The notes below the pieces were generated by a model. That model was given only the letters and a program-made list of their open reading frames with translations. It did no database searches and was not told the DNA's origin. A stretch of 64,000 bases of DNA from Ruminococcus sp. GTDB taxonomy: Bacteria > Bacillota > Clostridia > Oscillospirales > Ruminococcaceae. Numbering within the stretch: position 1 is the stretch's first letter; each line of letters begins with the position of its first letter. A program made the translations under genes and the position numbers. Below are positions 3,849 through 44,646 of the stretch, piece by piece. The DNA lies in assembly GCA_015066975.1 (NCBI GenBank), contig SVNI01000003.1, positions 17,951 to 81,950 of the forward strand, written 5' to 3'.

Positions 3849-4595
3849 TTAATACCAACCGCCCAGATTTCCATTAGCTCCTATTTGGCCGTTTGCTAAG
3901 GAAATTTTATATAATTCTTCAGCGGAGGAGTTCCCGGCATCTGTATAAATGGTACTCCATGTATTTGTGCCGACAAAATGTGCGTCTTTATTAGTATTAG
4001 CAATATATTCACCATTGACGTATGTGACTAATATACCTTTTCGATAAATTTGCATCATACGAACGGTAAAGTCTCTGTTATATACCACAACCAGTCCGAA
4101 ATTGGTATTTTCATCTTTCAGGAAATCAGCGCAAGTACCTTTGCTTCCATAAAGCAACGGATTTTTACCGCTTTTGCCTGCTTTCCATTCTTCGGAAACT
4201 GCTTCATCTAATCCGTTGGCAATGACTGTGTCGATTATCTGAGATGCGCCGTTGCTCTTTATCTTCTTTTTATAATTATACCAGCTTTTATTTGTGAAAG
4301 CACCTACTATTTCTGTTTCTCTTTCAGAGAATTTCTTATTCGTTCTCTGGTCAAGATAGAGTACTTTGTTAAAAGCTCCTGATAAATCACCGCCGCTTTG
4401 ATTAATCACAAAGCGCGACATCAGGGAGGATTCTATTGCTGTTTTGATTGTCTTTGCATCTGCAATTGCAACCGCAACCCTTGACTTTTTGACGTAGCCC
4501 GTCAGTGATGGTACAAGCATACCTCCTAAAATGCCGATAATGGTGAGGACAACAATCATCTCTACCAGCGTAAAGCCCTTTACCTTTTTTTTCAT
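3849..4595 (-). CDS. type IV pilin-like protein (prepilin N-terminal cleavage/methylation domain)
   Basis: MKKKVKG|FTLVEMIVVLTIIGILGGMLVPSL is a class III signal, with G-1, F+1 and E+5. No pilus assembly genes lie nearby. Confidence 0.8.
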   Translation of the reverse strand: MKKKVKGFTLVEMIVVLTIIGILGGMLVPSLTGYVKKSRVAVAIADAKTIKTAIESSLMSRFVINQSGGDLSGAFNKVLYLDQRTNKKFSERETEIVGAFTNKSWYNYKKKIKSNGASQIIDTVIANGLDEAVSEEWKAGKSGKNPLLYGSKGTCADFLKDENTNFGLVVVYNRDFTVRMMQIYRKGILVTYVNGEYIANTNKDAHFVGTNTWSTIYTDAGNSSAEELYKISLANGQIGANGNLGGWY

Positions 4596-4701
4596 AGTGT
4601 ATCATTCCTTTCTTGATGTTAAGTTGTTATGGTATGCAAAACATTTTCTCTGTGCTGATTAAAAATGCACAAAAATAATTACCGAACTTATTATTTATAG
4701 T

Positions 4702-4730
4702 ATTATATCACAAGTTTAATAAAATGTCAA
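4702..4730 (-). promoter_or_regulatory. promoter of the pilin gene
   Basis: On the minus strand: TTGACA (4730-4725), 17 nt, TATAAT (4707-4702). Confidence 0.6.
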
Positions 4731-4756
4731 TGCGTTTTTTTTAATTCTATTATTTT

Positions 4757-4797
4757 ATCTCTGAAATGCATAAAAATTTCTGCCGGATTCTGTTCAT
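4757..4797 (-). promoter_or_regulatory. conserved upstream motif, copy 2
   Basis: The 26-nt core at 4757-4782 is identical to 3691-3716. It starts 26 nt upstream of the pilin -35 hexamer. Confidence 0.6.
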
Positions 4798-4807
4798 ATT
4801 TTTTCTA

Positions 4808-4836
4808 TAGACAAATCAGAATTTTCATGCTATAAT
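4808..4836 (+). promoter_or_regulatory. promoter of the aldose-epimerase gene
   Basis: TAGACA (4808-4813), 17 nt, TGc-TATAAT (4831-4836). Confidence 0.5.
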
Positions 4837-4871
4837 AAAAATATAATTCAAAAAACTAAAGGAGGATTTCT

Positions 4872-5879
4872 ATGAATCAAACTAAAATTATCGAATTTGG
4901 CGGTATGAACTGTGTTCAGCTTCAGGCCGGAGGCTATACGGCTCTTATTGCACCGCAGGTCGGTTCGAATGTCATCCGACTGCATGATGATAAAAATCAT
5001 GTTGAATTTTTCCGTTTCAGTCCGGAAAATACTCTTGAAAGCCTGTTGCAGTCCGCTGAAGTCTGGGGTCTGCCGACTCTCTACCTGCCGAACCGTTTCG
5101 CTGACGGCATTCTGAAAACTTCTGATGCCACATATCAGCTCCCTGTCAACGAAAAAGCACCTTATAACAACCACATTCACGGTTTTCTGCATAAAAGAAC
5201 CCACACCGTGACAGAGCATAAATCGGATGATAACTGCGCATGGTGCAAAACAGAATACCTCTTTGACGAAAAAGATGAATTCTTCCAGTATCTTCCGGTG
5301 AAATTCAAAGCAGAATTTCTGTTTACACTTTCCGCCTGCGGTCTGGAATATGAATTCAAACTGACAAATCTTTCTGACAAACAGATGCCGATTTCCGTGG
5401 CGACACATACAACAATCAATTCTCCGTTCGTGGACGGCGCAAAACAGGAAGATGAACGTCTGCTCGCACCTATCGGAAAACGCTGGGTTCTGAATGAAAG
5501 ATGCCTTCCGACTGGTGAATTCATTGACCTGACCTCTCAGGATAACGAATACAAAAACGGCACTCGCCGTCCGGTGCTCCAGAATATCGACAACGAAATG
5601 TATTTCGCTGAACATACCGAATATAACGGCGAAAATCTTTATGGCATCATTGCAGAAGATATCAAATCCAAGAAAAAAATCTGCTATGAAGTCGGAGAAG
5701 AATATAAATTCTGGATTTTCTGGAATGACAAGGGCTACAACGGCTATTTCTGCCCTGAGCCGATGTCCGCTATGATTGATGCCCCTAATCTCGATATGCC
5801 TGACGCTGTTACCGGATATAAAGAACTCGCCCCGAATGAAAGCACTGTTTTCCATCAGCATTTCTTCACGATTCTGTAA
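4872..5879 (+). CDS. aldose 1-epimerase (mutarotase) family protein
   Basis: 335 aa with AAAGGAGG before the ATG. Mutarotase-like features (NNHIHGFLH..., ...YFCPEPMS). Located directly upstream of cellobiose phosphorylase. Confidence 0.7.
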   Translation: MNQTKIIEFGGMNCVQLQAGGYTALIAPQVGSNVIRLHDDKNHVEFFRFSPENTLESLLQSAEVWGLPTLYLPNRFADGILKTSDATYQLPVNEKAPYNNHIHGFLHKRTHTVTEHKSDDNCAWCKTEYLFDEKDEFFQYLPVKFKAEFLFTLSACGLEYEFKLTNLSDKQMPISVATHTTINSPFVDGAKQEDERLLAPIGKRWVLNERCLPTGEFIDLTSQDNEYKNGTRRPVLQNIDNEMYFAEHTEYNGENLYGIIAEDIKSKKKICYEVGEEYKFWIFWNDKGYNGYFCPEPMSAMIDAPNLDMPDAVTGYKELAPNESTVFHQHFFTIL

Positions 5880-6064: not shown

Positions 6065-8524
6065 ATGCAGAAATTTGGTCATTTCGATGACGTCAACAAA
6101 GAATATGTCATCACTTCTCCCAGAACCCCCTATCCGTGGATTAACTACCTCGGCACACAGGCTTTCTTCTCCCTGATTTCCATTACCGCCGGCGGTTATC
6201 ATTTCTATAAAGATGCCCGCCTGAGAAGAATTACCCGCTATCGCTATAACAACGTTCCGGTTGATATGGGCGGACGCTATTTCTATATCAACGATAACGG
6301 CACTATCTGGTCTCCCGGCTGGTCTCCGGCCAAAACCGAACTCGATTCCTATGAATGCCGTCACGGTATGGGCTATACCATCATCACCGGCAAGAAGAAC
6401 GGTCTTTCCGCAGAAGTCACTTTCTTTGTTCCGCAGGACTACAACGGCGAAATTCAGCGCGTTGTCCTCAAAAATGAAGGCAATACAGAAAAATCTTTCA
6501 AACTGTTCTCCATGATTGAATGGTGTCTCTGGAATGCACAGGATGACAGTACAAACTTCCAGAGAAACTTCAATACCGGTGAAGTGGAAGTAGAAGGCTC
6601 TACTATGTTCCATAAAACAGAATACAAAGAACGCAGAAATCATTTTGCTTTCTATACTGTAAATTCTGAAATCGAAGGCTTTGACTGTGACCGTGAATCT
6701 TTCATGGGTCTGTATAACGGCTTTGAAAATCCGCAGGCTGTTGTAAACGGCAAATCTGCTAACTCCAAGGCTGACGGCTGGTCTCCTATTGCTTCCCACT
6801 GCATCGCTGTTACCCTCCAGCCCGGCGAAACCAAAGAATTAATCTTCATTCTGGGTTATGTTGAAAATCCTAAAGAAGAAAAATTCCTTTCCGACGGAAA
6901 GAGCCTTAACAAATCCCGTGCATACGAAATGATTCAGAAATATAACACTTCTGAAAAAGTTGACGAAGGTCTCGGCGAACTCAAGGCTATGTGGGATGCT
7001 CTCCTGTCCAAGTATACTGTCAATACCCCTGATGAAAAGATGAACAGAATGGTAAATATCTGGAATCAGTATCAGTGTATGGTTACATTTAATATGTCCC
7101 GTTCCGCTTCTTATTTTGAATCCGGTATCGGCAGAGGTATGGGCTTCCGTGACTCCAATCAGGACTTACTCGGCTTTGTACACCAGATTCCTGACCGCGC
7201 AAGAGAACGTCTGATTGACCTCGCTTCTACTCAGTTCGAGGACGGCGGATGCTATCATCAGTATCAGCCCCTCACTAAGAAGGGTAATGACGAAATCGGC
7301 GGCGACTTCTCCGATGACCCGCTGTGGATGATTCTTTCTGTAGCCGCTTATATCAAAGAATCCGGCGACTATGGTATTCTGGATGAATTAGTTCCTTATG
7401 ATAACGATGCTTCCAAAGCACAGACTATGATGCATCACCTCAAGCAGAGCTTCTATCATGTTGCGCAGAACGTAGGCCCTCACGGACTGCCGCTTGCAAT
7501 GCGTGCTGACTGGAACGACTGCATCAATCTGTCCTGCTGGAGCGAAGAACCCGGCGAATCTTTCCAGACTTCCACTTCTCCCAAGTATGGTGAGGACAAG
7601 TATTCCAAGATTGCAGAATCCCTTATGGTTGCTGGTCTGTTCACCTATGCCGGCCCTGCTTTCGTTGACCTCTGCAAGTACAAGGGCGATGAAGAAGGTG
7701 CAAAGGCTGCTCAGGCTGAAATCGACAAGATGAAAGACAATATCATGAAATACGGCTGGGACGGCGAATGGTTCTTAAGAGCTTATGACGATACCGGTGC
7801 AAAGATGGGCTCTAAAGAATGCGAAGAAGGAAAAATCTTTATCGAACCGCAGGGCTTTATGGTCATGTCCGAAGTTGGTAAGGAACAGGGCGCAGACATC
7901 AAGGCTCTGGATTCTATCGACAAGTATCTCAATTCTGAACATGGTCTTGTGCTGAATAATCCGGCATTCACAAAATATTATGTTCAGTACGGCGAAATTT
8001 CTACTTATCCGGCTGGCTACAAGGAAAATGCTGGTATTTTCTGCCATAACAATGCTTGGATTATCTGCGCAGAAGCTTATGCAGGACGCGGCGACAAGGC
8101 TTTTGAATATTATTCCAAAATTGCGCCCGCTTACAGAGAAGAAAAATATTCCGACCTGCACAGAACTGAACCCTATGTATATGCTCAGATGATTGCCGGC
8201 AAGGATGCTGCACGTCACGGCGAAGCTAAAAACAGCTGGCTGACTGGTACTGCTGCATGGAATTTCGTGGCTGTTTCTCAGTATATTCTGGGTATCATGC
8301 CCGACTGGAACGGCTTAAAGGTTGACCCGTCTATCCCGAAGGCTTGGGACGGCTTTACTGCAACCCGTCAGTTCCGCGGTGCTACTTATAATATCACTGT
8401 CAAGAATCCGAATCATGTTTCTAAGGGTGTTGTTTCCCTGACAGTGGACGGCAAGGCTGTAGAAGGCAATGTTGTTCCGGCTCAGGCTGACGGCGTTCAT
8501 GAAGTTGTTGTGACTCTTGGCTGA
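6065..8524 (+). CDS. cbp: GH94 cellobiose phosphorylase
   Basis: [30 protein letters not shown]...[24 protein letters not shown] matches, from memory, characterised clostridial cellobiose phosphorylases. AAAGGAG lies ~11 nt before ATG 6065. The track ORF begins at 6044. Confidence 0.9.
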
Positions 8525-8561
8525 TAATTTCATTAAGAAAAGCTGAATTTTAAAATTAGAA

Positions 8562-8596
8562 TCCCCCGGCGGAGAAACCGCCGAGGGATTTTTTAT
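8562..8596. terminator. terminator between convergent cbp and the ydbT-like gene
   Basis: TCCCCCGGCGG / CCGCCGAGGGA hairpin with one mismatch, followed by TTTTTTAT. Confidence 0.65.
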
Positions 8597-10092
8597 TTGA
8601 TATTCGTCATAAATTCAGATAATAATTCACGGGTTTCAGTGTAGTCCAGACAGTAGAGAGTGCATTTCTGAGGCGTTTCGGCACGGAAATAGACTGTCAG
8701 ATGACACTTGTTGCTTTTCTTCTGCCAGATGTGCTGATGAATCCGCACTTTCACAACGCTGTCTGTTTCGGCGACAATCGTGTGAAATGTGAACCCCTTG
8801 CAGTATCTCATGCAGATACGGTTCTTCGAGATGCCGATTCCGCTACTCATCAGAGAAGCTATCTGTACAATCAGTTTCCAGACAATTGGTATCACTATCG
8901 TGATTTGCATCAGATTCGTGATTTCCTGTACTGCCGGAAACAGGTTTTCCAGAAACTCACCTGTCGGATAAATCGCCGCAAATCCGATAACGCACCAGCA
9001 CACATAGCCCCACCATGACTGTTTGGGAGGCCGGAGCTGATTTTTCAGAAAACGACTGCCGGGGAAAATCATCGGCATGGTTTCGATAAGCTCTTTCTGT
9101 GTCAGAATCGGCAGACAAATCGGCATCGCGCCCCTTTGATTGCCGTAGCCCGGACAGTTCACTGCCAGCGAATATACACGAAACAGCTTTGTCAGAAGAT
9201 TCTGCCGGATGTCCAGAAAATTAATTTTGTGATTCTGAAGATAGAAATATCTTGTCGTCATCAGTCCGCTTTTTACAAATAACTGACGCTTATCGCTTTC
9301 CATATAGAAACCGCCGTAGCGAATCAGATTGCTAATCATGGACAACAGCCATGATGACAGAATCAGAATTCCTACAGTTACCGCTATCGGCGGAATACCG
9401 GCCAGATGTTCAGCAACTTCACGAGAAACAGTATTCAGGCGTTCTGTCAGTTCAAATTCATTGATTAAATCACGGGCGATTCTTCCACTCTGAAACCAGA
9501 ATACAGCGATATAAAGCGCACCAGAAAAACTGCTAGAAAAAATAACAGAAAATAATAATATCTTCCACAGCCGGACTTTTCGTTCATAGTGATGGCGTTT
9601 TCCCTGCCGGAGTCTCGGCAGTGCTGAAAGAAATAACGGTTCATCTTTCTTCCGGATAAGAAGCTTGATGTCTGTCGAATTCAGCAGGCCGGATGCTGTA
9701 TCCGCATACAGATAAGAGGCATGAAACGGCCGGAGAAATAACGAATGCTCAATCGTCAGGGCAGAGAGATTTTTCACAGGCATGATGCGCTTCCGGGTGA
9801 AGATAAAACTATCCTGTACATAAAGCTGACCGTCTTCAACTGTGAATTTCCGGAAAAACCAGATGCAAAAGCCATATCCCAGAATTATCGCCAGAATCAG
9901 CAAGTCGAACCATGCACCGTTCAGCCAGTTCAGAAAAGCTTCCGGAGATAAACGAAATCCGGTTATCTGGTGTTTGTTCCAAGCTTTTAGAATATTCCAC
10001 AAACCACGCAGAAACGGAAAAATCAACAGCCATATTGTTTTCATGCTGTATTTGAGAATTCGCAGAGGATGTTCACGGTGCATGAAAAACAC
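8593..10092 (-). CDS. membrane protein, YdbT-like (bacterial PH-domain repeats)
   Basis: 499 aa with paired TM hairpins at intervals. Size and partner gene mirror B. subtilis ydbS-ydbT. The family call is from recollection only. Confidence 0.5.
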   Translation of the reverse strand: MFFMHREHPLRILKYSMKTIWLLIFPFLRGLWNILKAWNKHQITGFRLSPEAFLNWLNGAWFDLLILAIILGYGFCIWFFRKFTVEDGQLYVQDSFIFTRKRIMPVKNLSALTIEHSLFLRPFHASYLYADTASGLLNSTDIKLLIRKKDEPLFLSALPRLRQGKRHHYERKVRLWKILLFSVIFSSSFSGALYIAVFWFQSGRIARDLINEFELTERLNTVSREVAEHLAGIPPIAVTVGILILSSWLLSMISNLIRYGGFYMESDKRQLFVKSGLMTTRYFYLQNHKINFLDIRQNLLTKLFRVYSLAVNCPGYGNQRGAMPICLPILTQKELIETMPMIFPGSRFLKNQLRPPKQSWWGYVCWCVIGFAAIYPTGEFLENLFPAVQEITNLMQITIVIPIVWKLIVQIASLMSSGIGISKNRICMRYCKGFTFHTIVAETDSVVKVRIHQHIWQKKSNKCHLTVYFRAETPQKCTLYCLDYTETRELLSEFMTNIK

Positions 10093-37450: not shown

Positions 37451-37535
37451 TGGTGGGAGAGGATGGATTCGAACCATCGAAGCAAGAAGCAACAGATTTA
37501 CAGTCTGCCCCCTTTGGCCACTCGGGAACTCTCCC
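37451..37535 (-). tRNA. tRNA-Tyr (anticodon GUA), long variable arm, CCA encoded
   Basis: Reverse complement is GGGAGAGTTCCCGAGTGGCCAAAGGGGGCAGACTGTAAATCTGTTGCTTCTTGCTTCGATGGTTCGAATCCATCCTCTCCCACCA. Confidence 0.9.
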
Positions 37536-37561
37536 AATATTGAATTTTATCAGTAAGAAAA

Positions 37562-37637
37562 TGGAGCTGGTGGACGGACTCGAACCCCCGACCTGCTGAT
37601 TACAAATCAGCTGCTCTACCAACTGAGCTACACCAGC
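37562..37637 (-). tRNA. tRNA-Thr (anticodon UGU), CCA encoded
   Basis: Reverse complement is GCTGGTGTAGCTCAGTTGGTAGAGCAGCTGATTTGTAATCAGCAGGTCGGGGGTTCGAGTCCGTCCACCAGCTCCA. My fold has one G:G mismatch in the T-stem. Confidence 0.85.
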
Positions 37638-37678: not shown

Positions 37679-37707
37679 ATTATATCACAAGTCTGTTCAT
37701 TTGTCAA
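37679..37707 (-). promoter_or_regulatory. promoter of the tRNA-Thr/tRNA-Tyr pair
   Basis: On the minus strand: TTGACA (37707-37702), 17 nt, TATAAT (37684-37679). Confidence 0.65.
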
Positions 37708-37812: not shown

Positions 37813-37841
37813 TTGACTTTTTGCAGAAAAAAGAGTATCAT
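37813..37841 (+). promoter_or_regulatory. promoter of guaB
   Basis: TTGACT (37813-37818), 17 nt, TATCAT (37836-37841). Confidence 0.5.
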
Positions 37842-37872: not shown

Positions 37873-39357
<1,485 letters not shown>

Positions 39358-39371
39358 ATTAATTAAAAATT

Positions 39372-40856
39372 ATGATGAATCAGCCTGTGAATTTCTATCA
39401 GATCACTCGCTGTACAGAAACAAATGCTTTCACAGCCATGCTCCGCTATCAGAGCGGTAACTTCGCTGTGAAAGCTAAATCCAAAGAAATCGACTCCATG
39501 AAAATACTCGCTGATGCGTTATATTCTCATGGAGTTGCTGTTTCTGAAATGGACGGCTTCTTTCTGTCAGTGAGTTTCCGCTTCGGAAAAGAATTTGATT
39601 TGCTTAAAATCAATGATTCCGCCTGTCTGAATCTGGAACTAAAAAGCACATTGCAGAATTATTCCTCCGAACAGGCAGAAGAAAAAATCCGCAGTCAGCT
39701 ACGGAAAAATAAACATTATCTCTCTGTTCTGGGAAGAAAATTATATCTCTACACTGTCGTAACGGATTCCATGAAATGCTATCGCATGTCAGAAGACGGC
39801 GGATTCAAAGAAATCTGCTTTTCTGAAATCGTATCAGCCGTGAAGCACTTCTTCGGCGCGTATCTCTCCGATATTGAAAGTCTGTTCCGGCCGTCGGAAT
39901 ATCTGGTTTCTCCGCTGAATCATTCCAGAAAATTTCTGGAGCATATCTATTTTCTGACCCACGACCAGGAAGAAAAGAAAAAAGAAATTCTCGAAAAAAT
40001 GCGTTCGAATTCTGTCATGTTCGGCCTGACCGGGGAAGCTGGTACGGGCAAGACCCTCATGCTCTATGATATTGCAAGAGAACTCGCACAGGATGCGCCT
40101 GTTCTGACGATACACTGCGCTTCGGAAATTCCTGTCGGACTTTCAGCAATCGAACATCAGATTCAGAATCTGAAAATTCTCCGCCCGAAAGATTTTCAGA
40201 ATCAGGACTTGTCCGCCGTTCTGAATAAGTATCAGTATATTCTTACAGACGAAACACAGAGAGTCTATTCCGGTCTGATGACACAGATTTATAACTATAT
40301 CCGGAACAAGCACAAGTCTGCATTTATCTGTTTTGATTCCAGACAGACACTCAGCGTTCAGGAGGAGAATCAGAATATTGCACAATGGGCATATCAGCAC
40401 TGTGATAAAATCTATACGCTGAAAAATACTATCCGGACGAATGCCGAAATCATGCACTTTATCCGGAAACTGCACAATCTGAACTATCACATTCCGGCGC
40501 AGGTGCAGGCGGAACTGCCTGAACATGTCCGCATCTGCTATGCTGGAAATGGTCTCGAAACAGATAACTTTCTGGATTATTACAGACTTCCCGGAAATGG
40601 ACGGTATCAGTTTATTTCTCTCGATTCCTGTAATGCCGTTATCGGGCAGGAATTCGATAATGTCATGTTGATTCTGGACAAGATATTCTATTATGATGAA
40701 AATCAGAAACTCTGCGCTCATAATAATCAGGAATTTTTGTATATGCACAGGCTCTATCAGGCACTGACACGCGCAAGAGACAGGCTCGTGCTGATTATCA
40801 CAGATAAAAATTTATTCATGCAGATGATTTCTGCGTTAGGAGATGAACTATCATGA
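39372..40856 (+). CDS. PD-(D/E)xK/NERD-like nuclease domain fused to a P-loop SF1/DUF2075-like ATPase (494 aa)
   Basis: N-domain EFD76LLKINDSACLNLE89LK91 followed by Q109LRKNKHY116. LTHDQEEKKKEIL. Walker A GEAGTGKT (40032-40055). Walker B YILTDETQR. C-terminal VIGQEFDNVMLIL and LYQALTRARDRLVLII. No Shine-Dalgarno sequence before ATG 39372. Confidence 0.7.
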   Translation: MMNQPVNFYQITRCTETNAFTAMLRYQSGNFAVKAKSKEIDSMKILADALYSHGVAVSEMDGFFLSVSFRFGKEFDLLKINDSACLNLELKSTLQNYSSEQAEEKIRSQLRKNKHYLSVLGRKLYLYTVVTDSMKCYRMSEDGGFKEICFSEIVSAVKHFFGAYLSDIESLFRPSEYLVSPLNHSRKFLEHIYFLTHDQEEKKKEILEKMRSNSVMFGLTGEAGTGKTLMLYDIARELAQDAPVLTIHCASEIPVGLSAIEHQIQNLKILRPKDFQNQDLSAVLNKYQYILTDETQRVYSGLMTQIYNYIRNKHKSAFICFDSRQTLSVQEENQNIAQWAYQHCDKIYTLKNTIRTNAEIMHFIRKLHNLNYHIPAQVQAELPEHVRICYAGNGLETDNFLDYYRLPGNGRYQFISLDSCNAVIGQEFDNVMLILDKIFYYDENQKLCAHNNQEFLYMHRLYQALTRARDRLVLIITDKNLFMQMISALGDELS

Positions 40857-41284
40857 TTAACTGGTTAAACAAACAAGAGGAAGCATGGGAAGGTACGTTC
40901 CGGAGCGAATTCTTCCGGAATGAGGATAATCAGAATGAATTATTCGTATGTGCCGAAGCTCCCGTTGATACCGATTATGCGGAAAAAGCAATTGAAAATT
41001 TCAACGCTCTGCCGGAAGATGTCATTCAGGAAATCTGCAAAGGCATTGTCAGACTCGCAGGGCAGGGCGGAATAAATGAAGATTTCACCCTTCCGGAACT
41101 TTCCGTTCCTGAAGAAATTCTCGAATACTGCTGGTTTACAACGCTCTATATCAACGTACAGGAAAACGGTGAAATTATTCTCGAAGGTGAGGGAGAATGG
41201 GAAGAAGTTATCGACATTGTGCTGAAAAATAATCAGATTGTCTATATCGGAACGGAGTATTTTGATTATGATTCAGAATCTTGA
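40853..41284 (+). CDS. small acidic protein, paralogue A (143 aa), unknown family
   Basis: Its ATG overlaps the stop of the ATPase gene (ATGA), with AGGAG 10 nt upstream. It shares WEGTF.S.FFR, YAEKAIENFNALPEDVI, ILEYCWF, EGEGEW and Y.GTEY with the next two ORFs. Confidence 0.7.
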   Translation: MINWLNKQEEAWEGTFRSEFFRNEDNQNELFVCAEAPVDTDYAEKAIENFNALPEDVIQEICKGIVRLAGQGGINEDFTLPELSVPEEILEYCWFTTLYINVQENGEIILEGEGEWEEVIDIVLKNNQIVYIGTEYFDYDSES

Positions 41285-41696
41285 GTATGATGAAGAAGGC
41301 ATCGGAGAGGGAACTTTCAAGAGCCGTTACTTCCGTGATGATATGGGGGAAGATGAATTTACAGTCTATCTCAAAGGTAAATCTTTTCTCGGCTATGCGG
41401 AAGAATGTGTTCAGCATTTCAATGCTCTGCCGGAATCTGTGATAAATGACATCTGTCAGAAAATCATAGAGTATGTACAGCAGGATTATGAAGATTTTCC
41501 GCTTCCGGCGTTCGGAAAGCCTACAGAAATTCTGAATTACTGCGGATTCGGTTCGCTTGAAATCGGCTGTCCGAAACATGGAATCGCTTATGTGATACAG
41601 GGCGAAGGCGACTGGGGAGACTCTTTTGAAGTCATTATCAAAAACGGTCAGCCCGTCTATGCCGGAACAGAATATTTATACGAAGATTGGAGTTAA
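41268..41696 (+). CDS. small acidic protein, paralogue B (142 aa)
   Basis: GGAG lies 10 nt before ATG 41268, and the ORF overlaps paralogue A by 17 nt. Motifs: GIGEGTFKSRYFRDDMG, VQHFNALP, ILNYC, QGEGDWG. Confidence 0.7.
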   Translation: MIQNLEYDEEGIGEGTFKSRYFRDDMGEDEFTVYLKGKSFLGYAEECVQHFNALPESVINDICQKIIEYVQQDYEDFPLPAFGKPTEILNYCGFGSLEIGCPKHGIAYVIQGEGDWGDSFEVIIKNGQPVYAGTEYLYEDWS

Positions 41697-41699
41697 ATC

Positions 41700-42131
41700 A
41701 TGATAAAATTCAATTATGCTCCCGACGGCATCGGAGAAGGCACTTTCAAGAGCAGATATTTCAGAGACGATATGGGCAGTGATGAATTTCTCGTCTATAT
41801 TTTCAGTAAAGATTATGCCAAGTATGCCGAAAAATGCGTTCAGCATTTCAACAGTCTGCCGGATAATGTCATTAATGTGATTTGCTATCATATCATTGAA
41901 TCTGCAAAGCAGAATCTGCATAACCCCGGCTTTGTCCTTCCGGAACTTGAAAAAAATACCGATATTCTGAATTACTGCTGGTTTAAAGCCATGATAGTCA
42001 GCATTCCCGGTGATGATTCCAAAGCTTCTTACATCATGCAGGGCGAGGGCGACTGGGGCGAAATGATTGGCTTTGTTGTCACGGAAGATACTGTCACCTA
42101 TGTAGGGAAAAATTATATGCCCAATCGCTAA
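41700..42131 (+). CDS. small acidic protein, paralogue C (143 aa)
   Basis: GGAG lies 7 nt before the ATG, with a 3-nt gap after paralogue B. Same motif set: GIGEGTFKSRYFRDDMG, VQHFNSLP, ILNYCWF, QGEGDWG. Confidence 0.7.
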   Translation: MIKFNYAPDGIGEGTFKSRYFRDDMGSDEFLVYIFSKDYAKYAEKCVQHFNSLPDNVINVICYHIIESAKQNLHNPGFVLPELEKNTDILNYCWFKAMIVSIPGDDSKASYIMQGEGDWGEMIGFVVTEDTVTYVGKNYMPNR

Positions 42132-42148: not shown

Positions 42149-42177
42149 TTGCAAAAGTGTAAATCTTATGTTACAAT
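42149..42177 (+). promoter_or_regulatory. promoter of the second GH94 gene
   Basis: TTGCAA (42149-42154), 17 nt, TGt-TACAAT (42172-42177). Confidence 0.55.
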
Positions 42178-42211: not shown

Positions 42212-44608
42212 ATGCAATACGGATATTTTGATTTGAAAAACAAAGAGTATGTGATTACCCGCCCCGATACCCCTGCACCATGGGTTAACTATTTAGGTTC
42301 TCCTGAATATGGCGCAATCATTTCCAACAATGCCGCCGGATACAGTTTCGTGCAGTCCGGTGCGAACGGCAGAATTGCACGTTTCCGGTTCAATTCCATG
42401 ATGGCTCTGCCCGGCAGATATATCTATCTGCGCGATATGGATTCTAATGACTACTGGTCTGCAACATGGCAGCCTGTCGGCAAGTCCCTCGAAGAATACA
42501 AGAGCGTATGCCGTCACGGTACAGCATATTCTGTTATGACAAGCGATTATTCTGCTGTCAATACAGAAACAACTTACTATGTTCCTGCCGGTCAGACTTA
42601 TGAAGTTTGGAGAACCAAAATTACAAACAATGATACCAAGGCAAGAAAGCTTTCTGTATTCGGATTTATCGAATTCACAAACGATAACAATTACGAACAG
42701 GACCAGGTAAACCTTCAGTATACATTGTTTATTACCAGAACTGAACGCAAGGGCAATAAAATTCTCCAGCATATCAACGAGAATTCCGGCAAGTGGGCTG
42801 ACGGCTCTAACCATAAGGAAAGATTTTTCGGCATGGCTGGCGCAGAAGTGCTCGACGGCTGCGGAAGTCTGGAACAGTTCATCGGACCTTACAGAACCTA
42901 TTCTAATCCGATTATGGTCGAAAAAGGCAAGTGCGACGATTCTATGAACTTCAATTCCAATGCCTGCGGTGCGCTCCGGACAGAAATCACTCTCCAGCCC
43001 GGCGAATCCAAAGAATTAATCTATTTCTTAGGCCAGAAAAATGATGCAGAATCTGCTGAAATCCTCAAAGCTTACGAACAGCCCGGAAAAGTTGATGCCG
43101 AACTCGCAGAGCTGAAATCCTACTGGCACGGCAAACTTGCTAATTTCGAGGTAGAAACACCTTCTGAAGAATTCAATAACATGATGAATGTCTGGAATGC
43201 ATATCAGTGCTTTATCACGTTCATCTGGTCGAGAGCAGCTTCTTTTATCTACTGCGGATTAAGAAACGGCTATGGCTACAGAGATACTGTTCAGGATATT
43301 CAGGGTATTATCCATCTTGACCCCGAAATGGCTGCCGAAAAAATCAGATTCATGCTTTCCGCTCAGGTCGATAACGGCGGCGGTCTGCCTCTGGTAAAAT
43401 TCAATCATAATGCCGGTCACGAAAATACTCCCGATGACCCCGAATATGTCAAGGAAACAGGCCACCCGTCCTACCGTGCTGATGATGCCCTCTGGCTGTT
43501 CCCGACTATCGTGAAATATATCGGTGAAAGCGGTAATGCTGGTTTCCTAGACGAAGTTATCGTCTATGCTAACGGCGGTGAAGATACCGTTTATGAACAT
43601 CTCAAGAGAGCTATCAAATTCTCTATGGAACATATGGGCGGTCATGATATGCCTGCCGGTCTCCATGCTGACTGGAACGACTGCCTGAGACTCGGTGCTA
43701 AGGGCGAATCTACTTTCGTCGCATTCCAGCTCTATTACGCTATGAGCGTTATCAGAGATATGGCAGAATCCAAAAACGATACGGATTATATCAAGTATAT
43801 CGACGACGTGCAGAAGAAACTCGGCGATTCTCTCGAAAAGTGCTGGGATGAAGACAGATTCATCAGAGGTATCAGAGAAGACGGTGTTATCGTCGGTGCA
43901 AAGAAAGACCCCGAAGCTAATATGTGGCTCAATCCGCAGAGCTGGTCTGTTATCTCCAAGTTTGCAAGCGATGAACAGGCTGACAAAGCTATGAACAGTG
44001 TTCACGAAATTCTGAATACGCCTTACGGTGCAAAGCTCCTCGAACCGCCCTATAAAGAACATTATTTCGACGGTGCACTAATGCATATCTTCAATGCGGA
44101 TACCAAAGAAAACGGCGGTATCTTCTCCCAGTCGCAGGGCTGGCTGATTCTTGCCGAAGGTCTGCTCGGACACGGCGACAGAGCTTTTGAATATTTCCTC
44201 GAAAGCTCCCCGGCTACTCTGAACGATAAGGCGGAAATCAGAGTGCTCGAACCGTATGTTCACGGACAGTTCACCGAAGCAAAGCATTCTCCGTTTGCAG
44301 GACGTTCCCACGTTCACTGGCTGACAGGTACGGCTTCTACGGTAATGGTCGGCTGTACAGAGGGTATCTGCGGTATTCGTCCGGATGCTGACGGCATCAC
44401 GATTTCTCCCTCGATTCCTTCCGCATGGGACGGCTTCAAGATGAAGAAGAATTTCAGAGGCAAAAAGCTGAATATCTCCGTTGAGAATCCGAATCATGTG
44501 CAGAGCGGTGTGAAATCCGTATCTGTCAACGGAACAGTTCAGGAAAGTGCCTATATCAAGGCATCTGACCTGACTGAAACTAATGAAATCATTATCACAT
44601 TAGGCTAA
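42212..44608 (+). CDS. GH94 glycoside phosphorylase (chitobiose/cellobionic-acid-phosphorylase-like clade; specificity unknown)
   Basis: MQYGYFDLKNKEYVITRPDTPAPWVNYLG...GRYIYLRDMDSNDYWS. 798 aa. Same fold family as 6065-8524 but clearly diverged from it. Confidence 0.8.
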   Translation: MQYGYFDLKNKEYVITRPDTPAPWVNYLGSPEYGAIISNNAAGYSFVQSGANGRIARFRFNSMMALPGRYIYLRDMDSNDYWSATWQPVGKSLEEYKSVCRHGTAYSVMTSDYSAVNTETTYYVPAGQTYEVWRTKITNNDTKARKLSVFGFIEFTNDNNYEQDQVNLQYTLFITRTERKGNKILQHINENSGKWADGSNHKERFFGMAGAEVLDGCGSLEQFIGPYRTYSNPIMVEKGKCDDSMNFNSNACGALRTEITLQPGESKELIYFLGQKNDAESAEILKAYEQPGKVDAELAELKSYWHGKLANFEVETPSEEFNNMMNVWNAYQCFITFIWSRAASFIYCGLRNGYGYRDTVQDIQGIIHLDPEMAAEKIRFMLSAQVDNGGGLPLVKFNHNAGHENTPDDPEYVKETGHPSYRADDALWLFPTIVKYIGESGNAGFLDEVIVYANGGEDTVYEHLKRAIKFSMEHMGGHDMPAGLHADWNDCLRLGAKGESTFVAFQLYYAMSVIRDMAESKNDTDYIKYIDDVQKKLGDSLEKCWDEDRFIRGIREDGVIVGAKKDPEANMWLNPQSWSVISKFASDEQADKAMNSVHEILNTPYGAKLLEPPYKEHYFDGALMHIFNADTKENGGIFSQSQGWLILAEGLLGHGDRAFEYFLESSPATLNDKAEIRVLEPYVHGQFTEAKHSPFAGRSHVHWLTGTASTVMVGCTEGICGIRPDADGITISPSIPSAWDGFKMKKNFRGKKLNISVENPNHVQSGVKSVSVNGTVQESAYIKASDLTETNEIIITLG

Positions 44609-44615
44609 AAAAATA

Positions 44616-44646
44616 TCCCCGGCTGTGCAAGCCGGGGAATTTTTTA
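44616..44646. terminator. terminator between the GH94 gene and the convergent coiled-coil gene
   Basis: TCCCCGGCT / AGCCGGGGA hairpin followed by ATTTTTTAT. Confidence 0.7.

Follow-up and report, generated by a model that had tools for sequence, protein, structure and literature searches.

A divergent Nhi/AbiO-family nuclease-helicase gene downstream of guaB in a rumen Ruminococcus, followed by a DUF6985 array as its likely passenger

Four tightly packed genes between guaB and a GH94 phosphorylase gene of a rumen Ruminococcus had been proposed in a first-pass annotation to form an undescribed defence module, in which a nuclease-ATPase would be gated by a triplicated small partner. Our analysis of the window (the whole 64,000-nucleotide stretch of DNA that contains these genes) instead assigns the large protein to a single-gene anti-phage system that is already included in PADLOC. 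We favour, with reasonable though far from complete confidence, a reading in which this protein is a lone-acting chromosomal Nhi/AbiO enzyme and the co-transcribed array of DUF6985 genes behind it is a passenger whose function is that of its own family. Because DUF6985 genes are nearly everywhere else found alone among housekeeping genes, the apparent four-gene defence module probably reflects a juxtaposition specific to this lineage.

The architecture of the locus (Table 1) was confirmed by reading the sequence, and the four packed same-strand ORFs, their overlaps, their Shine-Dalgarno sites and both flanks are exactly as first described. The stop codon of the large gene, hereafter Nhi, overlaps the start codon of the first small gene (S1) in an ATGA at 40853-40856, the second (S2) starts 17 nt within the S1 ORF, and a gap of 3 nt separates S2 from S3. 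Each small ORF is preceded at a distance of 7-10 nt by a GGAG (40839-40842 for S1, 41254-41257 for S2, and 41689-41692 for S3); a longer alternative start of S2 exists (TTG at 41238), and homologues favour the ATG. Since no terminator-like sites were found between guaB and position 44616, the guaB promoter probably drives the whole set by read-through. Promoter-like sites within the 3' end of Nhi were not more frequent than in shuffled sequences, and we claim no internal promoter. Beyond guaB, which is 92-100% conserved across all syntenic loci, tRNA genes lie upstream.

Table 1. Features of the guaB-GH94 region in window coordinates.
Feature	Position	Strand	Remarks
Promoter-like site 5' of guaB	37813-37841		
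guaB (IMP dehydrogenase)	37882..39357	+	Pfam IMPDH/CBS on identical protein; upstream housekeeping neighbour
Nhi/AbiO-family nuclease-helicase (predicted), 494 aa	39372..40856	+	PADLOC, Pfam, AF2, Foldseek
PD-(D/E)xK motif, D76 ... E89-L-K91	39597..39644	+	Invariant in alignment
Walker A, G221-EAGTGKT-228	40032..40055	+	G221, G224, T225, G226, K227, T228 invariant
Walker B, D293-E294	40248..40253	+	Invariant; codons GAC GAA
Low-divergence (recombination) tract, window vs L004	40791..42054	.	Covers ~65 nt at the 3' end of Nhi and nearly all of the DUF6985 array
S1, DUF6985 paralogue, 143 aa, pI 4.05	40853..41284	+	Pfam PF22481 E 5.9e-12
S2, DUF6985 paralogue, 142 aa (from ATG), pI 4.14	41268..41696	+	Pfam PF22481 E 4.8e-10
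S3, DUF6985 paralogue, 143 aa, pI 4.84	41700..42131	+	Pfam PF22481 E 5.6e-9
Promoter-like site of GH94 gene, TTGCAA-17-TACAAT with extended TG	42149..42177	+	Downstream cassette boundary
GH94 phosphorylase gene	42212..44608	+	Pfam GH94_b-supersand, Glyco_hydro_94 on homologues
First strong terminator, 3' of GH94 gene	44616-44638		

Judged by its sequence, the 494-aa protein is a new, divergent, full-length member of the already described single-gene Nhi/AbiO anti-phage family. Its match to the PADLOC AbiO profile extends over positions 2-465 of 468 (361 bits, E 2.1e-108) and that to the Nhi profile over positions 3-467 of 470 (353 bits, E 4.9e-106), and Pfam finds SLFN-g3_helicase, AAA_30 and Viral_helicase1 domains. 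An AF2 model (pLDDT 88.4) retrieved RecD2, SLFN11/14, Pif1, Dda and Upf1 with Foldseek (E 1e-9 to 1e-6); helicases dominate the best 50 matches, among which the fold of the N-terminal nuclease domain has no match of its own. The earlier description of a PD-(D/E)xK nuclease joined to an SF1/DUF2075-type P-loop helicase of the defence type, which had already named the likeness to Nhi, thus holds, and the nuclease and Walker residues are indeed conserved: D76, E89 and K91 do not vary among 20 homologues with identities down to 34%, the Walker residues are invariant in the same alignment, and further invariant helicase residues (Q325, R355, G425/E427 and R467) indicate that the SF1B motifs are intact.

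In its length of about 500 aa, its N-terminal PD-(D/E)xK domain and its central to C-terminal SF1B (DUF2075/Schlafen group 3) helicase with all motifs, the window protein resembles Nhi of S. epidermidis (SERP2475; PADLOC PDLC02372 / PDLC02350, with lactococcal AbiO). It differs in being encoded on the chromosome, only 14 nt behind guaB, outside the defence islands or mobile elements that are the typical, not the defining, location of such genes; in having no Shine-Dalgarno sequence of its own; in a deletion of ~20 residues between helicase motifs relative to other homologues; and in its coupling to DUF6985 genes, which was seen in no other sampled homologue. Identity to the other sampled relatives is at most 40%, and to plasmid-borne ones at most about 35%. 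For SERP2475 and three homologues, a single gene has been shown to suffice for phage defence; Nhi has nuclease and helicase activity, forms a dimer and blocks phage DNA accumulation, and one of its homologues is toxic on over-expression (bioRxiv 10.1101/776245). AbiO is built from the same pair of domains, and at high copy number it is toxic (PMC13064643).

The family assignments of the four proteins, the intact catalytic motifs, the distribution of the linkage and purifying selection are direct results of the analysis. How the window enzyme would operate we infer from this published work on Nhi and AbiO, and that the DUF6985 array is independent of it we infer from the results described below. 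By homology, Nhi most likely acts alone, probably as a dimer: Its SF1B helicase domain would load onto phage DNA replication intermediates, which the N-terminal PD-(D/E)xK domain would then degrade so that phage DNA accumulation is blocked, with collateral toxicity possible at high Nhi dose. The gene would be transcribed as a distal part of the guaB transcription unit, directly 5' of a tandem array of one to three DUF6985 genes that is predicted to be co-transcribed with and translationally coupled to Nhi, yet is most likely a passenger and does not belong to the defence system.

The small proteins are acidic paralogues, as the first-pass annotation had stated; its view that they belong to no named family has to be revised, since all three score above the Pfam threshold for DUF6985 (PF22481; 46.8, 40.6 and 37.1 bits for S1, S2 and S3 at a cut-off of 24.5) and are assignable to this family on that basis. 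The copies have diverged to 35-50% identity (S2 is 41% identical to S1 and 49% to S3), and all of them contain the invariant motifs EG-F-S-F, DILNYC-F, EGEGDWG and Y-G-Y; an alignment of S1-S3 with 20 relatives has 18 invariant columns common to all. With 179 representatives among 1.84 billion proteins, the DUF6985 family is small. Its members are acidic alpha/beta proteins of the cytoplasm of Clostridia, about 140-147 aa in size and usually encoded as single copies in housekeeping operons. Searches of the PDB by sequence and profile, using S1 and the DUF6985 alignment, returned nothing below E 0.7; a Foldseek search of PDB and BFVD with the AF2 model of S1 (pLDDT 91.8) gave no match at E ≤0.001 and TM-scores of ≤0.4 among the best 50. 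The small genes have no match among PADLOC profiles, and a full-text literature search for DUF6985/PF22481 found no papers.

The HMM E-values (2e-108 for Nhi; 6e-12, 5e-10 and 6e-9 for the small genes) together with dN/dS values of 0.06-0.26 against orthologues argue that all four ORFs are real genes and not chance ORFs. That the small ORFs are annotation artefacts, i.e., remnants or chance ORFs behind an inserted defence gene, is accordingly an explanation to which we give almost no weight. Single copies can decay, as illustrated by a third copy that is truncated to 46 aa in one related locus (L006) and shortened to a 118-aa ORF in another (L004). But the three window copies are intact, score above the Pfam threshold, retain the 18 family-invariant residues and evolve with dN/dS of 0.12-0.26, and the one copy that was modelled, S1, folds with high confidence; taken together, these results refute decay.

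The proposed gating partner should travel with its effector, and DUF6985 mostly does not. Among 71 metagenomic DUF6985 loci, 64 carry a single copy among metabolic genes and no Nhi (at least 1.6 kb of upstream DNA was present in 42 of the loci scored as solitary), and four further solitary contexts found by look-up are all without Nhi as well. These genes of gut and rumen Clostridia resemble the window copies in threshold, motifs, size and pI; they differ in that each stands alone in a housekeeping operon, whereas here three diverged tandem copies lie behind a defence gene. Many are stable single-copy genes within leu/ilv/aro operons, and the order leuC-leuD-DUF6985-leuB recurs in 4 of 21 subgroups. 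A tblastn search with S3 against all plasmid and phage records yielded no DUF6985 match, and when viral contigs were scanned with the DUF6985 alignment, the one match (L020) was weak and partial and was not borne out by the HMM.

Small, acidic, cytoplasmic proteins in a tandem, recombining array of variable copy number are also reminiscent of the poly-immunity clusters of polymorphic toxin systems, and DUF6985 proteins could accordingly be inhibitors of competitors' nuclease toxins, unrelated to Nhi. Some details would fit: Rare fusions link DUF6985 to DUF1963/YwqG-type, DUF7832 or second DUF6985 domains, in L023 a DUF4241 gene lies 3' of the array, and a DUF4303 gene, of a family predicted as a cognate immunity domain in one preprint, lies 5' of the solitary copy in L035-L040. 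The first-pass annotation had itself named homologues that mostly lack the ATPase, for example beside LXG/T7SS or other toxins, as a finding that would refute its proposal; homologues do occur overwhelmingly apart from the ATPase, so that the idea of a triplicated gating partner fails by this measure, but their neighbours are housekeeping genes instead of toxins. A Pfam census of 110 dereplicated neighbours found metabolic and housekeeping families only, and no toxin, LXG/WXG100, Rhs or secretion gene was present among these neighbours, in the window flanks or near about 80 loci. Most members are single-copy genes in metabolic operons, with stable copies in leu/ilv/aro operons in particular, purifying selection on them is uniform (about 0.15), and published work (PMC4275035) interprets DUF1963 as a domain for protein-protein interaction or with a chaperone-like role rather than one for immunity. 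We thus regard an orphan immunity array as quite improbable.

The linkage of Nhi and DUF6985 is confined to one clade. All 7 of the 71 metagenomic loci with Nhi or cassette context belong to rumen Ruminococcus/Oscillospiraceae and share the guaB-GH94 site, with arrays of one to three DUF6985 copies; a search of genome contigs with the Nhi protein alone found at least 5 close relatives, which are syntenic. The cassette is thus clade-restricted and not a genus-wide core arrangement; invariant core synteny was another finding that the first-pass annotation had named as refuting its proposal. Outside this clade, Nhi homologues present in 211 plasmid records are stand-alone genes without DUF6985, no DUF6985 gene was found beside 35-40% identical Nhi homologues (three gut contexts) or beside five viral-contig homologues, and distant homologues adjoin TIR, WYL/HIRAN, DUF3800, Fic or resolvase genes or are plasmid-borne. 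Co-occurrence of the two families across unrelated genomes or sites was thus not observed in the sampled loci. The loci collected included neither an ancestral guaB-DUF6985 pair lacking Nhi nor an empty guaB-GH94 site; outside the clade, the neighbourhoods of the four nearest GH94 homologues are rearranged.

Within the clade, several observations weigh against the view of the array as a passenger and speak for lineage-specific co-option, in which a housekeeping-type DUF6985 gene was captured, triplicated and coupled to Nhi as a copy-number-variable partner. Its products could be an acidic, DNA-mimic-like brake on the enzyme until infection or diversified phage sensor or adaptor subunits, making the locus a multi-gene Nhi variant. 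The ATGA overlap is kept in every S1-bearing locus with the Nhi/S1 junction on the contig (L001-L006 and L021-L025) and persists between loci with saturated synonymous sites (dS about 1), so that the predicted translational coupling is conserved. Every Nhi locus of the clade keeps at least one DUF6985 gene directly downstream. Copy number varies (3, 2, 2 plus a fragment, or 1, with one chimeric copy), and tandem duplication, copy-number change and chimera formation are limited to Nhi-linked arrays; solitary loci are single-copy except for some fused double-domain proteins. The proteins are strongly acidic (pI 4.0-4.8), and since AbiO and one Nhi homologue have been published as toxic on over-expression, a buffering partner is biologically plausible.

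Yet we consider co-option unlikely. The linkage arose only once, at one site in the chromosome, and as all cassette loci derive from one ancestral arrangement, retention alone cannot separate function from inertia. Neither Nhi nor DUF6985 needs the other anywhere else sampled, and the most distant cassette locus (L007) has a single S3-type copy (71% identical to S3) after Nhi, with a 34-nt gap replacing the overlap. Acidity, invariant residues and dN/dS of the cassette copies are the same as those of solitary members. We considered and rejected both faster evolution of the cassette copies, whose dN/dS (0.12-0.26) is like that of solitary genes (0.14-0.16), and their specialisation as DNA mimics, since solitary members are equally acidic. 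The genes are under purifying selection.

Recombination bears on co-option in two ways. Between the window and L004, the flanks have about 10 mismatches per 100 nt and the low-divergence tract 1-2 per 100 nt, and dS is 0.00-0.15 for S1-S3 compared to 0.44-0.53 in Nhi, guaB and the GH94 gene. The DUF6985 array has moved between lineages without Nhi. A tract that covers the array suggests exchange of array alleles, which speaks for co-option, but an array exchanged without Nhi counts against tight cognate pairing.

The two-component helicase/nuclease systems Gabija (GajA/GajB) and Hachiman (HamA/HamB) and toxin-antitoxin (TA)-like pairs share with the window locus a nuclease-helicase activity with tightly linked small genes; PADLOC reports a weak local similarity to GajB (E 4e-7), and the ATGA overlap provides the operonic linkage and translational coupling expected of a TA-like module. 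Unlike in these systems, nuclease and helicase here form a single polypeptide, no PADLOC profile matches the small genes, and these co-occur with the effector family in one clade only.

With the passenger reading preferred, a false "undescribed defence system" is removed from the list of candidates, and its effector would be an ordinary, if divergent and unusually placed, Nhi/AbiO enzyme. The locus would then present Nhi/AbiO-type defence as a vertically kept chromosomal gene of an uncultured rumen Ruminococcus that is probably read through from guaB. For DUF6985, a family with a confident model and no structural relative in PDB or BFVD, the recurrence in leucine-biosynthesis operons offers a handle on function. 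Should co-option nevertheless be true, the locus would be the first Nhi variant made up of several genes, would give DUF6985 its first function, and would illustrate how an immune enzyme consisting of a single protein gains a regulatory partner.

The 494-aa product of the first cassette gene matched the PADLOC profiles of the defence proteins AbiO and Nhi end to end (E values of 2.1e-108 and 4.9e-106, respectively), and Pfam detected Schlafen-group-3/DUF2075 helicase, AAA_30, and Viral_helicase1 domains. In an alignment with 19 homologues of identity down to 34%, the PD-(D/E)xK residues (D76, E89, K91), the Walker A (G221, GTGKT 224-228) and Walker B (D293, E294) motifs, and the helicase residues Q325, R355, G425/E427, and R467 are invariant throughout, the window protein included. 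Its AlphaFold2 model (pLDDT 88.4) is matched structurally by the SF1B helicases RecD2, Pif1, Dda, and Upf1 as well as by human SLFN11/14. Nhi has been described as a dimeric single enzyme with nuclease and helicase activities that is sufficient for defence and blocks the accumulation of phage DNA, with protection against it possible via a phage single-stranded DNA-binding protein (bioRxiv 10.1101/776245); AbiO combines the same pair of domains and becomes toxic when present at high copy (PMC13064643). Because full-length profile matches, invariant nuclease and helicase motifs, fold, and the published single-enzyme action of Nhi agree, the protein is a member of the described single-gene Nhi/AbiO system and not the effector of an undescribed one, as the first-pass annotation had proposed. 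Nhi proteins of the cassette clade lack around 20 residues near ~410-415 that all other aligned homologues contain; the deletion falls where the central helicase lobe joins the C-terminal one (FINYS...HH segment of the alignment).

The four same-strand reading frames, their packing, and their GGAG sites are as originally placed: the large gene and S1 share an ATGA stop/start overlap, S1 and S2 overlap by 17 nt, S2 and S3 are 3 nt apart, and GGAG lies 7-10 nt 5' of each small gene.

Genes of the cassette in window coordinates
Gene	Position	Strand	Product
Large gene (Nhi/AbiO)	39372-40856	+	494 aa
S1 (DUF6985)	40853-41284	+	143 aa
S2 (DUF6985)	41268-41696	+	142 aa
S3 (DUF6985)	41700-42131	+	143 aa

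Upstream, guaB stops at 39357, and neither a promoter nor a terminator was found between guaB and Nhi (junction at 39358-39377), a spacer that measures ~6-57 nt in relatives. Since the Nhi start (ATGATG) follows only 14 nt past the guaB stop without a Shine-Dalgarno sequence, and since the first convincing terminator (44616-44638) lies 3' of the GH94 phosphorylase gene, the cassette is probably transcribed from the guaB promoter, which suggests low-level expression of Nhi, a potentially toxic enzyme, by read-through. The GH94 gene starts at 42212 and is preceded by a TTGCAA-17-TACAAT site. Just upstream of guaB, tRNA-Tyr(GTA) and tRNA-Thr(TGT) genes occupy the opposite strand (37451-37637, - strand) behind a perfect 12/12 TTGACA-17-TATAAT promoter with extended TG (37679-37707).

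The order guaB-Nhi-DUF6985(n)-GH94 was found at the same site in all close relatives of the window locus, comprising five species-level rumen MAGs, two contigs whose Nhi protein is identical to that of the window, and seven contigs from metagenomes, with 3, 2, 2 plus a fragment, or 1 DUF6985 copies per locus. The second copy of locus L003 (7915-8334) is an S2/S3 chimera, implying deletion by unequal crossing-over. In L006, S3 is reduced to a 46-aa C-terminal remnant (4486-4632), and in L004 the third copy was called at 118 aa (8329-8685), with tblastn similarity reaching S3 residue 143. In L023, a 245-aa DUF4241 gene (4534-5271; E 3e-67) separates the third DUF6985 gene from GH94. As a genus-wide core synteny the cassette does not qualify: four GH94 homologues (80-89% identity) are preceded by other genes, and both Nhi and DUF6985 are absent within 6 kb. 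In a related genome with an 89% identical GH94 homologue (L093, 2101-8397), guaB lies nearby but inverted, with an aspartokinase gene between and no cassette, so this region is rearranged and not a simple empty site.

The small proteins, which the first-pass annotation could not assign, each score above the Pfam threshold for DUF6985 (PF22481), a small family with 179 representatives at E <=1e-3 among 1.84 billion cluster representatives. Searches with S1-S3 returned no PADLOC match and nothing meaningful in NCBIfam (a single row for S1, 15.7 bits against a cut-off of 223). The confident S1 model (pLDDT 91.8) matched no PDB or BFVD structure significantly, a DUF6985/S1 sequence search of PDB gave none either, and a literature search found no paper naming DUF6985. 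In a few members, the domain is fused to another DUF6985, to DUF7832, or to DUF1963/YwqG; published work reads DUF1963 as a domain that is chaperone-like or serves protein-protein interaction (PMC4275035).

Outside this clade, the two families were found apart. Among 71 metagenome DUF6985 loci, 64 are solitary, i.e., single-copy and without an Nhi homologue, as are four further contexts that we looked up; in one scoring of loci as solitary, 42 carried 1.6 kb or more of DNA on the upstream side. Nhi homologues occur on 211 plasmid records and DUF6985 on none; three sampled plasmid homologues stand alone, followed by 600-1300 nt of empty sequence. Three gut Nhi homologues (35-40% identity) have TIR, WYL/HIRAN, DUF3800, Fic, and resolvase neighbours without DUF6985, which was also not found beside five viral-contig homologues. 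This distribution is the outcome that the first-pass annotation itself had named first as refuting its proposed module of an effector gated by a triplicated partner.

Cassette copies are also unspecialised by the measures applied. They retain 18/18 family-invariant residues, and their acidity is the family norm (solitary members, pI about 4.05-4.4). Purifying selection acts on all four cassette genes, with dN/dS of 0.06-0.10 for the large gene and 0.02-0.04 for flanking genes; the 0.12-0.26 of the small genes matches solitary subgroups (median 0.14-0.16). A rough NJ tree clusters S1 with solitary Ruminococcus genes and joins S2 and S3 as sister duplicates. We consider it probable that a canonical though divergent Nhi/AbiO nuclease-helicase acts alone, and that in one rumen Ruminococcus lineage its gene is fixed behind guaB, with a tandem array from an unrelated small-protein family, specific to this lineage, downstream of it.

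Comparison with L004 (~7420-8690) revealed a sharply bounded tract (~40791-42054) that takes in the final ~65 nt of Nhi and almost all of the array, with 1-2 mismatches per 100 nt and dS of 0.00-0.15, against about 10 mismatches per 100 nt and dS of 0.44-0.53 in Nhi, guaB, and GH94. Such a contrast indicates that the array was recently exchanged as a unit by homologous recombination between the two lineages, independently of Nhi. Exchange as a unit would fit a lineage-specific co-option of DUF6985 as Nhi modulator, which we regard as unlikely. Duplication, loss, and chimera formation were likewise seen in Nhi-linked arrays only, every S1-bearing locus with the junction on its contig keeps the ATGA overlap that joins Nhi to the first DUF6985 gene despite saturated synonymous sites, and a brake is plausible given the published toxicity of AbiO and one Nhi homologue. 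However, the array moved without Nhi, L007 has Nhi with one S3-type copy only, after a 34-nt gap, and the linkage has a single evolutionary origin, so that retention is indistinguishable from inertia.

Even less probable, in our view, is that the array represents orphan immunity genes, for which the DUF4241 gene of L023 and the DUF4303 gene directly upstream of solitary DUF6985 in L035-L040 are the sole hints; DUF4241 and DUF4303 are both small families, and DUF4303 is predicted as a toxin-immunity domain in one preprint. A Pfam census of 110 dereplicated DUF6985 neighbours returned only housekeeping families and no toxin, secretion, or defence families. One large human-gut subgroup sits between ilvB/ilvC and aroA-cmk. 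Within the branched-chain operon ilvC-x-ilvD-x-leuC-leuD-DUF6985-leuB of L097 (142-8290), DUF6985 has a 377-aa double-domain form; L045, L054, L058, L060, and L061 also place it in this operon, often with a DUF815 AAA ATPase gene 3' and an unannotated 189-aa acidic protein 5'. The order leuC-leuD-DUF6985-leuB recurs in 4/21 DUF6985 subgroups, and this recurrent placement in the leucine operon is a lead towards the real function of DUF6985.
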